In this document: piece after piece, positions 14,215 through 33,049 of the stretch | How positions within the stretch are numbered: the first letter of the stretch is position 1 | How the letters are laid out: every line of letters begins with the position of its first letter | Sequence record: NC_017969.1 | Direction: 5' to 3' (one strand) | Length of the DNA stretch: 64,000 bases | Origin: Escherichia phage vB_EcoS_AKFV33 | Notes under the pieces: model-generated | Databases searched by the model: none | What the model was told of the DNA's origin: nothing | Seen by the model: the letters and a program-made list of their open reading frames with translations, nothing else | Position numbers and translations under genes: made by a program

Positions 14215-15356
14215 AAGAAATCTCCAAATTCATTACCCAGATCTTTCAGAGTATCAGTAGAGGTTTCGGTGACTTGACCTACACGATATGCTGCACCAAT
14301 CTGGATTTCTTGTGGAGCAGGCTGTAAAGAAGTGGTATCCAACCAGTTCATGATCCACGGAATAGGGTTTTTGGTGATTACTGGTAAATGACTAGGCCAT
14401 TCTACACCGATGTGCATAAATGCATTACGTCCCACAAAATACAGATATTCTTCTAGAAGTTCTGCATTTAAACCAATCAGACTACGACCTTTGAAAATGA
14501 AATGACCCCATTCAATTTCAGTTTTCAGAGTTTTCAGAAGCTGTGCGGGTGCTTTAGCCAATGCTTCATCCACCAGATCTTTGTCAAACTGCTGGAACAT
14601 AATCTGGATGATTGCTTTAGACATCTGAGTGTGTAGAGCTTCATCTTTAGCGATTAGTTGTAGGTTTTTAGCAATACCTTGCAGAATATCGTTCTCTGCT
14701 AATGCAAAGGTACATGCAAAGGATGCGTAAAACTGCATTGCTTCCAGACCGTAGATTGCAAAGTAAGCGTCTAATAGCTTAGCCTGAGTTTCACGTTTAA
14801 CTTCAGGGAACTCAGTTTCTGGATACGTATTGTCGCCACGATGATCGCGTACTGCGATGAAATACTGACCTAACTGATATAGCTCATCAAATAGCTCAAC
14901 AGAATCAGCGATGCGTGCGAATGCTTCCTGGTTTTTGGTTACAGAATCAATAAATTCTGCTGGATCAGTCAGCACATTACGAATAATATTGCTATAAGCA
15001 CGACTATGCAGATCTTCAAAATAGCTCCACTGCTTGAGCATACCTTCCAATTCTGGGCGACTTACAAGTGGCATAATAGCTGCTTCAGGGGCACGACTGA
15101 TAAAGGAGTCAGTTTGAGTTTGCCATGCTAAGTTCAGGAGTGTAATTTCCTGAATTTCACGCGGGAGATTACCCCACTGCTTTTTATCAGCTTCAAGACT
15201 AATTTCAGTTTCAGTCCAGAACTGGGAACGCTGCAACAGAGCTAATCGCTCTAGTTCGGGGTGTGCCACACGCACATAATCTGCGATACCCAAAGAATCA
15301 CCTAGGAAAAGATCAGCGTTAGTATGGTCCCATTCTAAGTTAAGTAAAGTAGTCAT
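14211..15356 (-). CDS. nrdB: ribonucleotide reductase class Ia beta subunit
   Basis: NrdB-like length and di-iron ligand pattern. Confidence 0.85.
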   Translation of the reverse strand: MTTLLNLEWDHTNADLFLGDSLGIADYVRVAHPELERLALLQRSQFWTETEISLEADKKQWGNLPREIQEITLLNLAWQTQTDSFISRAPEAAIMPLVSRPELEGMLKQWSYFEDLHSRAYSNIIRNVLTDPAEFIDSVTKNQEAFARIADSVELFDELYQLGQYFIAVRDHRGDNTYPETEFPEVKRETQAKLLDAYFAIYGLEAMQFYASFACTFALAENDILQGIAKNLQLIAKDEALHTQMSKAIIQIMFQQFDKDLVDEALAKAPAQLLKTLKTEIEWGHFIFKGRSLIGLNAELLEEYLYFVGRNAFMHIGVEWPSHLPVITKNPIPWIMNWLDTTSLQPAPQEIQIGAAYRVGQVTETSTDTLKDLGNEFGDFL

Positions 15357-15850
15357 TTAGCTTCTCCGTTGTTTGCAAAGTCCCCATGAAGTTCTAGTAG
15401 TTTGATGTCTCTCCATTCTATAGCTTCTTCTAGGGTTTTAAAAGTTTTTGTGTAAGATTTGCCGTCTTTGCCTATCCTAACCTGAAATGAAGTGCCTTTT
15501 ACACGAATATTTTTCATTCCAAGCTGGTTATCCGCTCTTGCACACGAGTTCATAGAATTTTGAGAACTCGTGGCTTCACGGAGATTATCCCAGGCACAGT
15601 TGGACGGATTAGTATCTTTATGGTCGATTTTTCCTTCTGGTATTTCTCCAGTCATATACAAGAAGGCTAGGCGATGAGCTAAATATTGAACTCCTTCAAC
15701 TTTTATACGAAGATACCCTAATTTATCGTAGGTTCCTGCTTTAGCGTTCCATAAATGCTTTGCTAAAGTTTTTCTTGGGAGCCAGGTAAATTCGCCAGTT
15801 TCAGGGTCATAGGAGATTAGCTCTTTTAATCTACTCTGTGTTAATTTCAT
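15353..15850 (-). CDS. HNH homing endonuclease with AP2-type DNA-binding domain
   Basis: IDHKDTNPSNCAWDNLREATSSQN (HNH) plus KNIRVKGTSFQVRIGKDGKSYTKTF (AP2-like); inserted between nrdA and nrdB with own promoter. Confidence 0.75.
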   Translation of the reverse strand: MKLTQSRLKELISYDPETGEFTWLPRKTLAKHLWNAKAGTYDKLGYLRIKVEGVQYLAHRLAFLYMTGEIPEGKIDHKDTNPSNCAWDNLREATSSQNSMNSCARADNQLGMKNIRVKGTSFQVRIGKDGKSYTKTFKTLEEAIEWRDIKLLELHGDFANNGEAK

Positions 15851-19482: not shown

Positions 19483-19682
19483 CTACAATTTTAAATAAGC
19501 CTATGATATTGCATTTAAATAAAAAATTTGCTTGCTTTTAACGTGAGATGTGTGATACTAGATAATCATTTTATATCGCGTACACGAGTGCGTGATTATA
19601 CAATCTTTAATAGAAATTGGCAAATAAAATTTTTTCAAAAATTGATTAAAGTCAAGTTATTTAAGAATGCTAAAAAATTTTA

Positions 19683-19711
19683 TTGACATAGTGGTATTTT
19701 TATATTATACT
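19683..19711 (+). promoter_or_regulatory. strong sigma70 promoter (TTGACA-17-TATACT)
   Basis: consensus -35, 17-bp spacer, near-consensus -10, AGGAG RBS before ATG at 19735. Confidence 0.6.
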
Positions 19712-19734
19712 ATGTACTAAATAGGAGAAATAAA

Positions 19735-20403
19735 ATGCCAAAGAAATTGAGTACGGAAGAAGTCAATAATAGACTTTTAGATAGAGGAATTGTCTTAGTT
19801 GGGGAGTATATAAATGCTAATACTAAGGCTAGTTTTAGATGTTCAGTGGGGCATGTATGGGAAACAAAACCATCAGTGTTACTTAACATGGGATTTGGAT
19901 GTCCATATTGCAGTGGGAAAGCTAAACTAACTCCTGAAGTAATAAACCAGGAATTAAGTAATAAAGGAATACAAATAGTAGGCAAATATGTAAATAATAG
20001 AACTCCGACCCTTTTTAGGTGTGAAAATGGCCATGAGTGGAATACTACTATTAATGCAGTGAAAAATTTAGACAGTAATTGCCCGATATGTAAAAAAGAA
20101 GGCAGGTCTAAAACAAAACTATATGTTATGTATAGTGAATCTTTAGGTACTAAGATTGGTATCTCTAATAAACCGGGAACTAGATTAGGAAAAATTAGCA
20201 GAAATGCTAATATACCAGATCTTAAATTATTTAAAGTATTTGATATCTTAGATTATACTAAGTGCCGTAAAATTGAGAAAGCAGCACATGAGCATTTTAA
20301 AGAATGGAACTGCTATTATAAGGATTTTGATGGTGCTACAGAGTTTTTTGATATTGAACCAGATACAGCAGTAAAATTTATTGAGGAAAATATTAATGAC
20401 TGA
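19735..20403 (+). CDS. GIY-YIG-like (T5orf172-type) protein with duplicated zinc-ribbon modules
   Basis: two repeats of F(R)C..GH.W...CP.C; C-terminal KLYVMYSE...GTKIGISN...R; strong promoter and RBS upstream. Confidence 0.55.
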   Translation: MPKKLSTEEVNNRLLDRGIVLVGEYINANTKASFRCSVGHVWETKPSVLLNMGFGCPYCSGKAKLTPEVINQELSNKGIQIVGKYVNNRTPTLFRCENGHEWNTTINAVKNLDSNCPICKKEGRSKTKLYVMYSESLGTKIGISNKPGTRLGKISRNANIPDLKLFKVFDILDYTKCRKIEKAAHEHFKEWNCYYKDFDGATEFFDIEPDTAVKFIEENIND

Positions 20404-22243
20404 AGCTGAATTATTCGATAATATCTATGGTATTACAGATGGCTTTGCAGACTCTACCCTAAAGCATAATAATGCTAATAAACCCTCTGAGCGTTTTCCT
20501 ACTCAGCGGGATATGATTGCAGGTGAACTAAGTAAATTTTTAACCTTGCAAGAAATGCCCGTACAGATCAGGACAGCACACTCAATCGGAGATATTCATT
20601 TCCATGACTTGGATTATTCCCTTTTGGGCATGACTAACTGTTGTCTAGTAGCTCTGGAAGATATGCTAAAAAATGGTATGAAGGTTGGTAATGCTGAAAT
20701 TAGCACTCCAAACTCTATCACTACTGCGGCGGCTATTACTGCTCAGATTATCACTCAGGTTAGCTCCCATCAGTATGGTGGTACTTCTGTAGATCGCCTT
20801 GATGAAGTATTAGCCCCTTATGTTCGTAAATCCTATGACAAAAATCATGCGTTTGCAAAACGTTGGACTAAGGATGAAGCCAAAGCATCAGTAATGGCTA
20901 CGGAGATGACTGAAAAAGAAGTCTATGACGCTTGTCAGGGTTTAGAATATGAAATCAATACCATGTTCAACTCTAATGGTCAGAGTCCATTTATTACCTT
21001 TGGTTTTGGTCTAGGAACTTCCTGGGAAGCACGTCTAGTACAGAAAGCAGTACTGAAAGTACGCATGGATGGTTTAGGTATCAATAAACGTACAGCTATC
21101 TTCCCGAAACTGGTATTTGTACTTCGCGATGGCGTAAATATGAAACCAGGAGATGTTAATTATGACATCAAGAAGTTAGCTATGAAATGTACTGCTGAAC
21201 GTATGTATCCAGATTATATCAGCTATGACAAGGTTGTAGAAGTTACTGGAGACTATAAAGTTTCTATGGGCTGCCGTTCATTCCTAGCTGCTGCAGAAGA
21301 TGGTGAAACTGCTGGCCGTAATAACTTAGGTGTTGTTTCTGTAAACTTGCCTAGAATTGCTATCGAAGCTGAAGGAAATATTGATCTATTCTTTGATTTG
21401 CTTGAGCTACGTGTGGATACAGCGTTAAAAGCATTGGAGTGGAGAGTTGATCGCTTAAAATACATCCAAGCTAAAGCTGCACCCATCCTCTATATGTCAG
21501 GAGCCTTTGGGTTACGCTTGGAGCCTGATGAATATGTATTCGATCATTTCTATAACCGTGCTTCTGTATCTCTAGGGTATATTGGTTGCCATGAAATGCT
21601 ACAGTTCATGTTCGGCAAAGATGTAGACACAATGTCAGAGACCTGCATCAAGTTTGTTCAGCGTGTATTGCAGTACATGCGAGATAGAGTCGATCAGAAG
21701 AAGGAAGAGACTAAGTTAGGTTATAGCCTGTATGCTACACCGTCAGAGTCCCTATGTGATAGGTTTTGCCGTTTAGACCGTGAATATTTCCCAGAGCATG
21801 AAGATATTCTGTCTAAAGGATACTACACTAACTCGCACCACCTTGATGTAGAGCGTAAAGTTGCTCCTAACGTGAAATTTGATTATGAATCTAACTTTAC
21901 GCCTATTGCTTCTGGTGGGTGCATTTCCTATGTAGAACTACCGGATATGAAACGATTCCCAGATGCACTGGAATGGGTTATTAATTATGCTGCTAGTAAG
22001 GTTCATTACTTCGGTATTAATACCCCAGTGGATTCTTGTGGTAAATGTGGATTCTTAGGTGAAACAATAGCATCCGAAGATGGATTCAAGTGCCCTATCT
22101 GTGGTAATCATGACCCCGAAACTCTTGAAGTAACTCGTCGAGTTTGTGGGTATCTTGGAAATCCAGGTGCTCGTCCGTTTAACCCAGGAAAACAACATGA
22201 GGTTATGGGCAGGGTGAAACATCAGGATATTCGAGCTAAGTAA
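20396..22243 (+). CDS. nrdD: anaerobic ribonucleoside-triphosphate reductase (class III)
   Basis: glycyl radical motif RVCGYLG and C-terminal zinc ribbon; ATG with GAGGAAAA RBS. Confidence 0.9.
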   Translation: MTEAELFDNIYGITDGFADSTLKHNNANKPSERFPTQRDMIAGELSKFLTLQEMPVQIRTAHSIGDIHFHDLDYSLLGMTNCCLVALEDMLKNGMKVGNAEISTPNSITTAAAITAQIITQVSSHQYGGTSVDRLDEVLAPYVRKSYDKNHAFAKRWTKDEAKASVMATEMTEKEVYDACQGLEYEINTMFNSNGQSPFITFGFGLGTSWEARLVQKAVLKVRMDGLGINKRTAIFPKLVFVLRDGVNMKPGDVNYDIKKLAMKCTAERMYPDYISYDKVVEVTGDYKVSMGCRSFLAAAEDGETAGRNNLGVVSVNLPRIAIEAEGNIDLFFDLLELRVDTALKALEWRVDRLKYIQAKAAPILYMSGAFGLRLEPDEYVFDHFYNRASVSLGYIGCHEMLQFMFGKDVDTMSETCIKFVQRVLQYMRDRVDQKKEETKLGYSLYATPSESLCDRFCRLDREYFPEHEDILSKGYYTNSHHLDVERKVAPNVKFDYESNFTPIASGGCISYVELPDMKRFPDALEWVINYAASKVHYFGINTPVDSCGKCGFLGETIASEDGFKCPICGNHDPETLEVTRRVCGYLGNPGARPFNPGKQHEVMGRVKHQDIRAK

Positions 22244-22250
22244 GCTAATC

Positions 22251-22287
22251 AGCCGGGTTGCTAGTCGACCTGGCTTTTATTTTATTT
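22251..22287 (+). terminator. rho-independent terminator after nrdD
   Basis: AGCCGGGT...ACCTGGCT hairpin then TTTATTTTATTT. Confidence 0.55.
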
Positions 22288-22314
22288 GCTTTCAGCCAAA
22301 AATTTATATATAAT
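22286..22314 (+). promoter_or_regulatory. early promoter (TTGCTT-17-TATAAT)
   Basis: motif plus GATTTATAAATTTGAGGAGG leader. Confidence 0.55.
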
Positions 22315-22343
22315 AGATTTATAAATTTGAGGAGGTAGGAATT

Positions 22344-22724
22344 ATGACTTTAAAACCGTATATAGTGGAGTCTACGTGTGGCAGTTTCCACCTGGGTGTG
22401 GATGATATTGCTGAGGCTGTCTTTGCTGCCACAGGTGATTACTCTCATATAGGGGGTGCTGGGTACCCCACCGTTATTGGCGATTGGGTGGAAACAAATC
22501 TAGATGTGTCGCCTTATAACCCGTATTGCTTGTTTGATGAAGACAGAGATGAGGTAAAGTGTAATCTTGAATTTGTGTATAATAGAGTATTAAAAGTATA
22601 CCAACGTAGTCCCGAGGGGTACGAAGATATTACTTGTAGTATTAAACAGTATCTTAAAGATGTATACTCTAGTTTTTCTGACGAAGGCCTAGAAACAGTT
22701 GCAGTGGAGTTTAATAATGACTAA
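22344..22724 (+). CDS. hypothetical protein (126 aa)
   Basis: ORF track; GAGGAGG RBS. Confidence 0.5.
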   Translation: MTLKPYIVESTCGSFHLGVDDIAEAVFAATGDYSHIGGAGYPTVIGDWVETNLDVSPYNPYCLFDEDRDEVKCNLEFVYNRVLKVYQRSPEGYEDITCSIKQYLKDVYSSFSDEGLETVAVEFNND

Positions 22725-22923: not shown

Positions 22924-23086
22924 TCCAGAAAACATGCTTATTGAGCAATGGAACTTTGGTTATAATGCCGGTATAGCTACTTGTATTGCTAGATTGGATA
23001 TGCTTATTAAGCAAGAAAAGGTACGCCCGGAGGAAGCAATTTTACTCCGAAATATTATCGAAGGATTTAAGCAAGGAATCGTATAG
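22892..23086 (+). CDS. hypothetical protein (64 aa)
   Basis: ORF track. Confidence 0.35.
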   Translation: MDFLNQSLKSNPENMLIEQWNFGYNAGIATCIARLDMLIKQEKVRPEEAILLRNIIEGFKQGIV

Positions 23087-23904
23087 TGCGTAGATTAATT
23101 ATTATTAGCGGTGCAGGTTTGAGTGTTGAAAGTGGTGTACGAGCTTTTCGTACTGATACTGCTAGTGGTAAAGCACTGTGGGATGATTATGATCTAGAAG
23201 AAGTATGTAATATTCATGCCTTTCGTGGTAATTTTTATCATAAAACCCATATGTTTTACAACAAGCGTCGTGAAGAGCTAAAAACTGTTGAACCCAATCT
23301 TGCACACTTGCGTATTGGTGAATGGTATAAACAATATCCAGGTCAAGTAGTAAACTTGACTACCAACGTTGATGACCTTATTGAGCGTGCTGGCGTTCCA
23401 CATAGTGACATTCTGCACATTCACGGATATTTAAAAGAGGTTGTTGTAGCTGATAGCTACAATAGTAGCAATAAACGGATTATTGATGTAGGGTATAATT
23501 CTATTGATCCAGATGATTATAAATGGGTTAAACCTAATGTTATCTTCTTTGGTGAGGTTGCTCCTGCCTATAAAACAATGTATGAGGTTTTTGATGGTAT
23601 CACCAGTCATGATATGATCATCATTGTTGGGTGCTCTAACCAAGTAATTAACTTCTACTGGGAGCTATTTCCTATTCTGAATCTTACTGCTGCAAAACTT
23701 ATGGTAGTTAACTATTACGATAGTGCAGTAGCTATGGAACCAGGCTATCAGGGCATGACTCGTAGTGAAATGTATCAGTTAGAAGAACGTGGTATTCCTT
23801 ACTGGAGTAAAGGTGCTGTGGATGCCTTTAGTGATCCCGATTTTATTGCTCGTGTGGAAGCTCATCTAGAAGGTAAACCCTATGTCCAACAAAAGCATGT
23901 GTGA
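23086..23904 (+). CDS. Sir2-like (sirtuin-fold) protein lacking the zinc-ribbon cysteines
   Basis: N-terminal ISGAGLSVESG, catalytic-position His in IHGYL, VIFFGE motif; no CxxC pairs. Confidence 0.55.
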   Translation: MRRLIIISGAGLSVESGVRAFRTDTASGKALWDDYDLEEVCNIHAFRGNFYHKTHMFYNKRREELKTVEPNLAHLRIGEWYKQYPGQVVNLTTNVDDLIERAGVPHSDILHIHGYLKEVVVADSYNSSNKRIIDVGYNSIDPDDYKWVKPNVIFFGEVAPAYKTMYEVFDGITSHDMIIIVGCSNQVINFYWELFPILNLTAAKLMVVNYYDSAVAMEPGYQGMTRSEMYQLEERGIPYWSKGAVDAFSDPDFIARVEAHLEGKPYVQQKHV

Positions 23905-24064
23905 TCTTTTAGTGTGGCCGGACGGTAGTTGGTGCTACCGTTTCGAATTTGCTACCGATGATTTCTCATGGAAGAGTGATGATTTCTGTGTTATCTATGA
24001 AGATACAGCAGAATGGAAAGAGTTCCTTATTAAGGAGGGAGAATATGGTGAAGAAGATTTTTAA
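23882..24064 (+). CDS. hypothetical protein (60 aa)
   Basis: ORF track. Confidence 0.3.
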   Translation: MSNKSMCDLLVWPDGSWCYRFEFATDDFSWKSDDFCVIYEDTAEWKEFLIKEGEYGEEDF

Positions 24065-24230
24065 GGGTATCTGGAAAGGTCTAGTATGGTTTGTCAACCT
24101 AATCGGTATGATTACCATTTATTCTCTGTTCCTATCTGTTATGTGGGGTAAAGGTGAATTGAAGGTTCCAGTTCCTTTTACTGATGAAGTTAAAGTCTGG
24201 ACGTGGGATGCTACTGGTGGAAATAAGTAA
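24044..24230 (+). CDS. small membrane protein (~62 aa)
   Basis: AAGGAGGG RBS then ATG; one hydrophobic helix. Confidence 0.4.
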
Positions 24231-24723
24231 TACTCCTGTGATTTTCCTGGATATTGATGGGGTGCTCAATTCGAGCATCTCCCACCATCATGCACCTGAT
24301 GATGAAAAGATTTTCTTTGGGAGTGACTGGGTTTTCAAACCGCTTCTCAAGGCTTTTCAAGATTTTATTCGTCCTTCCTCGATAATGATTGTTGGGGTAT
24401 CCTCATGGTTCTCTGTCAGGAATGAGATGGAGAACGTTCAGATTATGACCGGATTAGGTCTTATCGATCGTTTTCTTGGTACAACGGATTTTACTGGTGG
24501 TGGATTATCTAGGGGTAATTCTGTTCTTCGCTTCGTTGAAAAGCATAAGCTCAAACATTGGTGTGTACTGGATGACGCTGGTGCTATGATGTATCAGTAT
24601 CCAACGGTTATAGTCAATGGTAGAACTGGAATAAATCTTCAAGATTTAAAAGCTGTTAGCTATATGCTAGAATTTAGCCCAGATCTTGAAATGTGTAAAT
24701 CCTTACAACAATTTAAGGTGTAA
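24184..24723 (+). CDS. HAD-superfamily phosphatase (possible 5'-deoxyribonucleotidase)
   Basis: motif I VIFLDIDGVLN near N-terminus. Confidence 0.6.
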   Translation: MKLKSGRGMLLVEISNTPVIFLDIDGVLNSSISHHHAPDDEKIFFGSDWVFKPLLKAFQDFIRPSSIMIVGVSSWFSVRNEMENVQIMTGLGLIDRFLGTTDFTGGGLSRGNSVLRFVEKHKLKHWCVLDDAGAMMYQYPTVIVNGRTGINLQDLKAVSYMLEFSPDLEMCKSLQQFKV

Positions 24724-24725
24724 AT

Positions 24726-25154
24726 ATGTTCAATAATGTATTCTCTAAAGAAGCTAACCCAATTTTGGTTAACTTTTGGCGTACTCTCCCAGCTAGCCTG
24801 TATAATGAGGCTATTAACTCTTTGAAAATATGGTGTGAGAATAACGAAATCTCCTTTGCTTTTAAAGATGATATTGATGAGGCTCCCTGTATTGGTTTAA
24901 TTGTGCAGGTAGAGGAGGGTCTTGAAGAGATTGTGGGCTGGAAAGAGTTAGACGAAATGGGCTTAGTTTTTGCGTTAAATTATAAACTGTTTATGCCTGC
25001 TAAGCATCGCCTTGTTGTTAACTATAAAACTAGTGAATCTCCTGGTTTTCAGGTTAATGAACGTTATGGTTGGTCTTACTCACCGGAAGAAGTAAATGAG
25101 GGGATTCAGAAACTTCGACGTTTCGGGTATATGATCCCGGGTTTAACTGCTTAA
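24726..25154 (+). CDS. hypothetical protein (142 aa), paralog of next ORF
   Basis: shares PCIG...W.EL..M.L..ALN..LF.P...PGL with 25164-25556. Confidence 0.5.
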   Translation: MFNNVFSKEANPILVNFWRTLPASLYNEAINSLKIWCENNEISFAFKDDIDEAPCIGLIVQVEEGLEEIVGWKELDEMGLVFALNYKLFMPAKHRLVVNYKTSESPGFQVNERYGWSYSPEEVNEGIQKLRRFGYMIPGLTA

Positions 25155-25163
25155 GGAGGCAGG

Positions 25164-25556
25164 ATGGAACAAGTATATTGGCGTCAGATTGACCCTAGTT
25201 TGGTGAAACGTGCGGAGAAGCTGCTACAACGTTGGTTGGGGGTAAGGCAAGCCTCCTTCTCTTTTCCGGAGCAGCAAACGGATGATCCATGCATTGGCGT
25301 TTTCCTGTCTGGATATGCCGGGGAATGGGAGATGGATTGGAATGAATTGTCCGCTATGAGTTTAATTGTTGCCCTAAATTTCTCTTTGTTCCATCCACGT
25401 GGTTTGGCCATATGTCGTGTGCCTGATGACGGTTGTTCGCCCCATCTTTTACAGGTGGAAGATGATATTTGGGAGTACACTCCAGATATTCTCAAAGAAG
25501 CTAAAGAACAATTAAACCGTGTTGGGATTTATGTTCCAGGCCTAAATGATGAATGA
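25164..25556 (+). CDS. hypothetical protein (130 aa), paralog of previous ORF
   Basis: as above. Confidence 0.5.
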   Translation: MEQVYWRQIDPSLVKRAEKLLQRWLGVRQASFSFPEQQTDDPCIGVFLSGYAGEWEMDWNELSAMSLIVALNFSLFHPRGLAICRVPDDGCSPHLLQVEDDIWEYTPDILKEAKEQLNRVGIYVPGLNDE

Positions 25557-25647: not shown

Positions 25648-25678
25648 TTGACAATTTGGATGGATTATGTAATAATAT
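25648..25678 (+). promoter_or_regulatory. promoter with duplicated TTGACA boxes upstream of second HNH gene
   Basis: TTGACA at 25625 and 25648, TAATAA/TAATAT -10 candidates. Confidence 0.4.
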
Positions 25679-25695: not shown

Positions 25696-26148
25696 ATGTC
25701 ATTCACACAGCAAGAACTTTTAGATAACTTCCGATATGAAGATGGTAAGTTATTTAGAACTACAGGAAGAAATGCAGGGAAAGAATGTTGTGTTTCTACG
25801 GGTAACGGATATTATCGTATATCTCTAGGGAATAGGACTATGCTTCGGCATAGAGCAATATTTTTAATGCATCATGGATACTTACCTGATTTAGTAGATC
25901 ATGTGAATACTATAAAAGGTGATGATCGTATTGAAAATCTTAGAGAGCAGACAGTGTCCGGTAATCTAAGAAATATCAAATATAAGAAAGGAATGCATGT
26001 TTACCCTTCTGGTAGTAAGAACTGGCAAGTAGTATTTACTATTAACCGTAAACGTATAGTTAAAGGAACATATGACAACTATGAGGTTGCATGTTCTATG
26101 GCCAAGATGTTTAGAGGTCAATTATACGGTAGGGAATCAATCCAGTAA
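25696..26148 (+). CDS. HNH homing endonuclease with AP2-type domain (second copy)
   Basis: HRAIFLMHHGYLPDLVDHVNTIKGDDRIENLREQT plus AP2-like C-terminus; start moved to ATG after GGAGGTGAGG RBS. Confidence 0.7.
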   Translation: MSFTQQELLDNFRYEDGKLFRTTGRNAGKECCVSTGNGYYRISLGNRTMLRHRAIFLMHHGYLPDLVDHVNTIKGDDRIENLREQTVSGNLRNIKYKKGMHVYPSGSKNWQVVFTINRKRIVKGTYDNYEVACSMAKMFRGQLYGRESIQ

Positions 26149-33020: not shown

Positions 33021-33049
33021 TTGACATTTTCGCCGCTTAGGTATATACT
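33021..33049 (+). promoter_or_regulatory. sigma70 promoter (TTGACA-17-TATACT) between the ligase halves
   Basis: consensus -35 and spacing. Confidence 0.5.

Follow-up and report, generated by a model that had tools for sequence, protein, structure and literature searches.

The open reading frame at positions 19735-20403 of the window, which is the whole 64,000-nt stretch of Escherichia phage vB_EcoS_AKFV33 analyzed here (NC_017969.1), is probably a free-standing homing endonuclease gene of a T5-like phage, belonging to the T5orf172 branch of the GIY-YIG superfamily; judged from sequence comparison, a probability of about 0.8 is given to this reading. The surrounding region is collinear with T5-like phages (Demerecviridae, Markadamsvirinae) at 92-98% identity, and the genes follow in the order td, frd, nrdB, HNH, nrdA, ..., PhoH, the 19735 open reading frame, nrdD, ..., HNH, origin-binding protein. 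The AKFV33 genome paper numbers the same gene order as ORF93-ORF112, in which the 19735 gene is ORF100 and is given only as a DNA-binding-domain protein (PMC3326045). The 222-aa product is 100% identical to the deposited "endonuclease [Escherichia phage vB_EcoS_AKFV33]" and is named T5 Orf172 DNA-binding domain protein in UniRef. No NCBIfam family was found for the protein, and no paralogue of its gene within the window.

Domain architecture of the gene product

The gene, its ribosome-binding site and the domains of its product are as follows.

19735..20403, + strand: putative homing endonuclease coding sequence, T5orf172 family (222 aa)
19723..19727, + strand: Shine-Dalgarno sequence AGGAG, 7 nt 5' of the endonuclease ATG, read from the sequence
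19753..19920, + strand: zinc-finger module 1, helix plus treble clef (aa 7-62; DUF4379/CapR matches, conserved ligands, AF2 secondary structure)
19933..20094, + strand: zinc-finger module 2 (aa 67-120; second DUF4379 stretch and likeness to module 1)
20113..20400, + strand: T5orf172/GIY-YIG-like nuclease domain (aa 127-222; Y130, K140-I141-G142, R150, E181, H185, E203)

The first-pass annotation had proposed a GIY-YIG-like protein with duplicated zinc ribbons and had called for a domain search for a nuclease family. In that search, two families of the GIY-YIG clan in Pfam were matched over aa 135-218, T5orf172 (PF10544; E 2e-8, 35.1 bits against a cut-off of 20) and MUG113 (PF13455; E 4.8e-6, 27.5 against a cut-off of 22.3). 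Because both exceed their curated cut-offs, the protein does have a nuclease-family profile match, and its predicted fold, of which the best PDB matches are GIY-YIG nucleases, agrees with this assignment. The T5orf172 profile is also matched by 12 of 13 aligned homologues, and PHROG 681, described as "endonuclease", matches the protein at 5.8e-51.

The duplication of the zinc module was likewise borne out. The Pfam family DUF4379, a "probable treble clef zinc finger", matches two stretches (4e-11), and CapR is matched at 2.9e-8. The two treble-clef modules (aa 4-62 and aa 64-122) are 41% identical to each other (E 5e-17), and each carries four zinc ligands in the arrangement C-x3-H...C-x2-C, namely C36/H40/C56/C59 and C96/H100/C116/C119. 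In the homologue alignment the ligands of both modules are invariant or at least 90% conserved, all four being invariant in module 2.

The AF2 model of the protein has a pLDDT of 89.4, and its C-terminal domain is predicted as beta-beta-alpha-beta-alpha-alpha, within which the GIY-YIG core (a three-stranded sheet with flanking helices, beta-beta-alpha-beta-alpha) is present. None of Y130, G142, R150, E181 and E203 varies among 13 homologues of 25-87% identity. Judged by the order of the motifs and the predicted fold, and with the alignment in PMC8263062 as a guide, Y130 (strand 1), R150 (helix 1) and E203 (the metal-binding Glu) appear to be the equivalents of the catalytic residues of I-TevI (R27/E75) and Odn (E180). 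The gene is under strong purifying selection, with a dN/dS of 0.034 against EH7 and of 0.057 against NBEco002 (dS 1.26), which represent the two other sub-lineages of this allele, and the zinc modules and the nuclease domain, taken one by one, give similar ratios. A very low dN/dS with saturated dS could also mean a function useful to the phage.

Distribution among related phages

Among the matches listed, the gene was found in 5 of 433 phage records matching the left flank; these counts include GenBank/RefSeq duplicates and are therefore numbers of records, not of independent isolates. The five carriers are EH7, vB_SalS_KFSSM and Kenya-K20, at about 97% identity, and NBEco002, at 86% and under two accessions, so that the allele of the window is known from four distinct phages; its reading frame is intact in all five records. 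The empty junction, queried with the sequence of T5_ev219, is present in full length in 356 records, and the site is empty in about 80% of related records (both among the matches listed).

Two sister genes occupy the same site in other phages. One encodes a 287-aa protein with three zinc modules and 48% identity, and occurs in Shivani, H8, SHSML-45 and others, in 27 records in all among the matches listed. The other, of 223 aa and 46% identity, occurs in ESCO40, NR01 and YJin-2024a, and in YJin-2024a it is joined with the other nrdD lineage. Remnants at this site are found in phC11, phA11, Kenya-K36/K42 and HildyBeyeler, where the promoter, a start codon changed from ATG to ATA and the last 64 codons are left; the remnant of phC11 is the Shivani gene with a 665-bp internal deletion. 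In Gostya9 and DT57C even less of the sister gene is left at the site. No decayed copy of the window-type allele was found among the matches listed of the 433 left-flank records.

The nrdD junction and the linked tract

The gene had been placed upstream of nrdD, and it lies directly so, its stop codon overlapping the start of nrdD. The features of the junction are listed below.

~19636..20667, no strand assigned: endonuclease-linked tract, a putative mobile cassette comprising a promoter variant, the 5'UTR, the gene and the recoded 5' end of nrdD (about 270 nt)
20396..22243, + strand: nrdD, anaerobic ribonucleotide reductase, the start overlapping the endonuclease stop (ATGACTGA, 20396-20403)
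20383..20387, + strand: Shine-Dalgarno sequence GAGGA for nrdD, inside the endonuclease coding sequence, 8 nt before ATG 20396
22251..22275, + strand: terminator-like hairpin and T-run 3' of nrdD, from a consensus scan only

The TGA of the endonuclease gene (20401-20403) overlaps nrdD beginning at ATG 20396, which is also the start annotated for nrdD in relatives, rather than the upstream TTG of the mechanical list of open reading frames. The hairpin at 22251-22275 is the probable end of a two-gene transcription unit.

The N-terminus of the window nrdD is recoded and nine codons shorter than that of the empty allele, in which NrdD begins MNRNEELKYKEMQALIRN... In the occupied alleles NrdD starts at the equivalent of codon 10 (MTEAELFDN..., MTENELIEN... 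and MNKDELIRN...), and both the Shine-Dalgarno sequence and the ATG of nrdD lie inside the endonuclease gene. On the left, the window and the empty-site phage T5_ev219 agree fully (100%) over 350 nt, and their homology ends at about 19635. Rightward of the conserved NNANKP codons (20468), the first four 50-nt bins match the empty allele at 84, 72, 68 and 80%, and the rest of nrdD matches it at 92-100%; the flanks of the site are 95-100% identical. The tract thus delimited by the left break and the rightward jump in identity, about 19636-20667, is the unit by which carriers differ from non-carriers, and it stands in place of the promoter spacer, the 5'UTR and the initial 270 nt of nrdD. A comparable junction is seen in YJin-2024a, where about 85 nt beside the gene hold a cluster of substitutions, beyond which identity to the empty allele is 100%. 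A gene accompanied by recoded flanking sequence is the pattern expected of homing with co-conversion and target-site immunity.

Promoter of the putative endonuclease gene and nrdD

One promoter is predicted upstream of the two genes.

19683..19711, + strand: sigma-70-type promoter TTGACA-17-TATACT for the endonuclease gene and nrdD (11/12 match)

The first-pass annotation had called this the strongest consensus promoter in the window. The site itself is real and scores 11/12, and its rank does not hold, since it ties with eight others: in a consensus scan of the window, no site reached 12/12 and nine reached 11/12. These include the divergent promoter on the PhoH side (19623-19595), the HNH promoter at 25648 and a site at 33021, the hexamers of which are identical to those of 19683-19711. 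Promoter-like matches in the 12-31 kb region numbered 53, against 59 +/- 9 in shuffled sequence, and because the scan count is no higher than in shuffled sequence, a consensus match alone is weak evidence.

Conservation across alleles is the better argument for a functional promoter at 19683-19711. Whether empty or occupied, each allele of the locus carries a TTGACA-17-TATAAT-like promoter at the corresponding position, and in the empty-site, NBEco002 and Shivani alleles the match there is a full 12/12. The upstream element, the spacer and the 5'UTR vary by allele; the window and Shivani types have the spacer start TAGTGG in common. Since the empty allele already has a promoter there, the element did not supply one to a site that had none, and this possibility was discarded. 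The element sits between the resident position of the nrdD promoter and nrdD, with a promoter variant of its own.

Two HNH endonuclease genes in the same region

Three endonuclease-like genes had been proposed for this part of the genome, two of them adjoining ribonucleotide reductase genes, and this count was confirmed. The other two are of the HNH type.

15353..15850, - strand: HNH_3 endonuclease gene between nrdA and nrdB (Pfam HNH_3 1.2e-16; AP2-like C-terminal motif in the alignment)
25648..25676, + strand: promoter TTGACA-17-(TG)AATAAT before the second HNH gene, with a near-consensus extended -10
25696..26148, + strand: HNH_3 endonuclease gene with a predicted AP2-like C-terminal DNA-binding domain (HNH_3 2.3e-11; PHROG 99 1.5e-41)

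The gene at 15353-15850 does lie amid the class Ia ribonucleotide reductase genes, as had been claimed. For the gene at 25696-26148, which is preceded by a GGAGG site, the description as HNH-AP2 was upheld in its HNH part, whereas its AP2 part is favored by the predicted fold and not by the Pfam profile. The predicted C-terminal fold, three strands and a helix, matches AP2 domains, in a model that was built on a four-sequence alignment because the word-indexed homologue search gave two relatives. No match to the AP2 profile (PF00847) was obtained in Pfam at E values up to 1, the only C-terminal profile match being Arm-DNA-bind_3 (E 0.039, below the cut-off), and no NCBIfam family was found for the protein. 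Between the two HNH proteins, 57 residues align at 39% identity. No other endonuclease domains were found in ten other open reading frames of the first 13 kb.

Both genes vary among relatives. Among the matches listed, the 15353 gene was present in 30 of 440 related records and the 25696 gene in 40 of 439, so that, with the figure for the 19735 gene given above, the presence/absence polymorphism that had been suggested as a check is strong for all three genes. At the nrdA/nrdB site the remaining records are empty or carry a different HNH gene, as in phage 2-3, TrudiRoth and EPS7, where it is annotated as a homing endonuclease. In the AKFV33 paper, ORF96 (the 15353 gene) and ORF111 were called homing endonucleases, with an identity of 42% between ORF96 and the T5 HNH enzyme and of only 32% between ORF111 and a protein of a Pseudomonas phage (PMC3326045).

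Alternative explanations

The nuclease could instead be a weapon against competing phages, satellites or host DNA, as ICP1 Odn is against PLE, or part of a defence or counter-defence system. Such a role is that of Odn, a T5orf172 nuclease (PMC8263062), and a match of the present protein to the PADLOC candidate system PDC-S57 (6.8e-6) points the same way; being weak and restricted to the nuclease domain, this match was set aside as evidence for a defence system. Odn mimics a replication initiator with its RepA_N domain, whereas the N-terminus of the present protein is made up of generic zinc-finger repeats, and Pfam gave no RepA_N match in it. Moreover, at this one homologous site alleles are replaced together with co-converted flanks, the outcome that homing produces, and the cutting of competitor genomes at the allelic site would be mechanistically equal to homing or marker exclusion. 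A role as a weapon is very improbable. Domestication as a DNA-binding regulator is very improbable. The zinc modules would then bind the region of the nrdD promoter, which is also the gene's own, and tune transcription, as in PLE CapR or in I-TevI autorepression, the nuclease activity being lost or irrelevant. This would suit the homology to the CapR domain at 2.9e-8, the derivation of the repressor CapR from such a gene (PMC8096241), the position immediately 3' of a strong promoter common to the gene and nrdD, the strong purifying selection and the annotation as a "DNA-binding domain" protein alone in the AKFV33 paper (PMC3326045). The T5orf172 domain is complete, however, its Tyr, Arg and Glu are invariant, and it is constrained as much as the zinc fingers (dN/dS 0.057). 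About 80% of relatives, among the matches listed, have nrdD without any such protein, and the allelic series, sharp junctions and remnants are signatures of mobility. A moonlighting repressor role may exist on top of homing.

It is also conceivable that the gene is an inactive relic of a homing endonuclease, kept only since its 3' end bears the ribosome-binding site and start codon of nrdD. The Shine-Dalgarno sequence and ATG of nrdD do lie inside the gene, and the phC11-type remnants retain exactly the promoter and the last 64 codons, as this explanation would have it. Yet the frame is intact in all five records, dN/dS is 0.03-0.06 in all three domains despite a dS of 1.26 between two sub-lineages, and the catalytic and zinc-binding residues are all present; a gene needed for its 3' end alone should have suffered internal deletions, as the sister allele has. 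A relic is accordingly the least probable of the explanations considered here. The reading as a homing endonuclease gene is preferred.

A possible route of homing

If the gene is a homing endonuclease gene, an early sigma-70 promoter at 19683 would transcribe it together with nrdD, up to the hairpin at 22251, and nrdD would be translationally coupled to it. During mixed infection, the zinc-finger modules would bind the nrdD promoter/5' region of a phage without the gene, in a stretch of about 195 bp that differs in the occupied allele, and the GIY-YIG domain would cut nearby, probably within the same ~195 bp replaced in carriers; sequence comparison narrows the target region only to this extent. 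Recombinational repair on the carrier template would bring the gene, along with the polymorphisms that flank it, into the recipient. The recoded 5' end of nrdD and the altered promoter spacer would make the carrier immune to its own enzyme.

A further idea, tentative and rather unlikely as it stands, is that the cassette has become locked into the nrdD operon ("operon capture"), having removed the first nine codons and the original ribosome-binding site of nrdD, whose Shine-Dalgarno sequence and start codon the 3' end of the cassette gene now supplies, and having brought a promoter variant. If this were true, clean loss of the element would be selected against, and decay would proceed only by internal deletion sparing the promoter and the last codons; the phC11-type remnants have exactly the shape that operon capture predicts. 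Operon capture would be a mechanism of retention beyond homing, and the zinc-finger modules could in addition autoregulate the shared promoter.

Relation to known systems

The gene is of an already known kind. T5orf172 genes with repeated CapR/DUF723/DUF4379 zinc fingers are, according to Barth, Dunham and Seed (2023, PMC10448857), abundant in T5-like phages, variable in presence, frequently decayed and located at boundaries of genetic exchange, and ribonucleotide reductase genes occur in 33% of their neighbourhoods. The same article also states that homing by T5orf172 genes is still without experimental verification (PMC10448857). The genes described there, from ICP1 and T5-like phages, have the same architecture as the 19735 gene, with N-terminal repeats of CapR/DUF4379 type followed by a C-terminal T5orf172 domain, and they are free-standing, variable among close relatives and placed beside ribonucleotide reductase, terminase or capsid genes. 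No difference in kind from them was found; the promoter-nrdD locus of Markadamsvirinae and its series of alleles receive no special mention in the available text of PMC10448857. Novelty is low, because the class was described in 2023 (PMC10448857) and the protein is already deposited and named endonuclease. The family is also very large: among 1.84 billion representative proteins, 15,107 match with E values of 1e-3 or lower and 657 with 1e-30 or lower, and many of the matches have up to eleven zinc-module stretches.

The nrdD locus can serve as a test bed for T5orf172 homing in easily grown phages of E. coli and Salmonella, since the site is available empty, in at least three diverged occupied forms whose genes have two or three zinc modules, and with deletion remnants. 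Simple crosses at this locus could measure target specificity, immunity by nrdD recoding and the length of co-conversion tracts. The analysis also corrects the AKFV33 genome paper, in which two homing endonucleases were counted and the 19735 gene was listed only as DNA-binding (PMC3326045).

Several individual proteins can be compared with the 19735 product. The zinc-finger domain of CapR binds DNA in a cysteine-dependent manner, and its ligands are four cysteines (CxxC...CxC), in contrast to C-H-C-C in the 19735 protein (PMC8096241). ICP1 Odn (gp88), the one T5orf172 protein with demonstrated nuclease activity, cleaves DNA in vitro, and the E180A exchange of its conserved Glu abolishes cleavage (PMC8263062); it shares with the 19735 protein a T5orf172 catalytic domain with conserved Arg and Glu, but its DNA-binding domain is a RepA_N mimic aimed at the replication origin of a satellite, and it acts as an anti-parasite weapon and not as a homing element. 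T5.154 of phage T5 (AAS77193) is 38% identical over 96% of the length and has two zinc modules and a T5orf172 domain, whereas its gene lies between those for the large terminase and the portal and the annotated open reading frame has an N-terminal extension.

The HNH genes of the window have counterparts too, in T4-type MobE and the T5 HNH endonucleases (F-TflI, II and IV; P-TflVIII). Points of likeness are the HNH_3 domain and the placing of a free-standing HNH gene between nrdA and nrdB, which the AKFV33 paper notes for ORF96 (PMC3326045).

I-TevI and the Seg proteins of T4 combine a GIY-YIG catalytic domain with a separate DNA-binding region that includes a zinc finger, as the 19735 protein does, but their catalytic domain is N-terminal where that of the 19735 protein is C-terminal, and they belong to Pfam family PF01541 as against PF10544. 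The GIY-YIG homing endonuclease genes of T4 are free-standing or intron-borne, lie near genes of nucleotide metabolism and co-convert flanking markers.

Two nrdD Lineages and the Endonuclease Gene at the nrdD 5' End

The nrdD genes of T5-like phages fall into two lineages, which share only about 66% nucleotide identity (window 20396-22331 compared with the nrdD loci L004, L005 and L006 of phages Shivani, ESCO40 and phC11), unlike the flank on the PhoH side, which is 93-98% identical among the same phages. In the second lineage, an endonuclease gene or the remnant of such a gene sits at the 5' end of nrdD in all 50 records found. The lineage split, together with the gene or remnant at the 5' end, fits a picture in which nuclease genes would mark the boundaries of genetic exchange.

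The last eight or so codons of the endonuclease genes (EEIINDRE or EENIND) align as DNA with the first codons of nrdD in the empty allele (NEELKYKEM), as was seen by comparing 4334-4370 of L002, a locus carrying the empty allele, with approximately 3140-3172 of the Shivani locus L004 and with window 20375-20403. Because this alignment holds at the DNA level, it is proposed that the endonuclease gene may owe its tail to the displaced 5' end of nrdD, read in another frame.

The Shivani-type endonuclease gene is also found as a deletion remnant, located in phC11 as follows:

L006 2483-2677, deletion remnant of the Shivani-type endonuclease gene

The phC11-type remnant has ATA in place of the start codon and an internal deletion of 665 bp between short A/T-rich repeats, while retaining the promoter as well as the final 64 codons, inside which lie the ribosome-binding site and start codon of nrdD. 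This form also occurs in phA11, Kenya-K36/K42 and HildyBeyeler, and deletion remnants that are shorter still occur in Gostya9 and DT57C.

Neighbouring Features of the Window

The 345-bp gap from the PhoH-like gene to the endonuclease gene contains a back-to-back promoter pair, each member matching 11 of 12 consensus positions, and the minus-strand promoter lies within the portion conserved in all relatives:

19595-19623, minus strand, promoter
19683-19711, plus strand, promoter

Directly past the nrdD terminator, window 22332-22712 has no counterpart in the EH7, T5_ev219 and Shivani-type loci, where the alignments show gaps. This stretch is another variable cassette. It holds an ORF for which no Pfam family was matched. 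The genes at 23086-25556 all fall in the interval from nrdD to the second HNH gene:

22344-22724, ORF of 126 aa
23086-23904, Sir2-family gene
24184-24723, HAD_SAK_2 phosphatase-like gene
24726-25154 and 25164-25556, two DUF7415 paralogues in tandem

A tRNA cluster was also located:

666-5873, minus strand, 11 tRNA genes (Lys, Asp, Asn, Cys, Phe, Trp, Glu, Tyr, Leu, Ser, Arg)

Among the larger ORFs of the tRNA region that were tested, none has an HNH domain, which agrees with a remark in the AKFV33 genome paper that the endonucleases of the T5 tRNA region are absent (PMC3326045).

Related Elements in Other Phages and Proteins

The annotation of Shivani nrdA (L004 1-914) states an intein splice site, and no such element is present in the NrdA of the window (811 aa). 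An intein there would give a related phage one more selfish element in this ribonucleotide reductase neighbourhood. The zinc-finger module has relatives in proteins (P0025-P0171, from the protein search) that reach 1,629 aa in length. Since up to 11 stretches are matched per protein, the module is evidently used in long arrays, far above the two or three copies of the T5-like phages.
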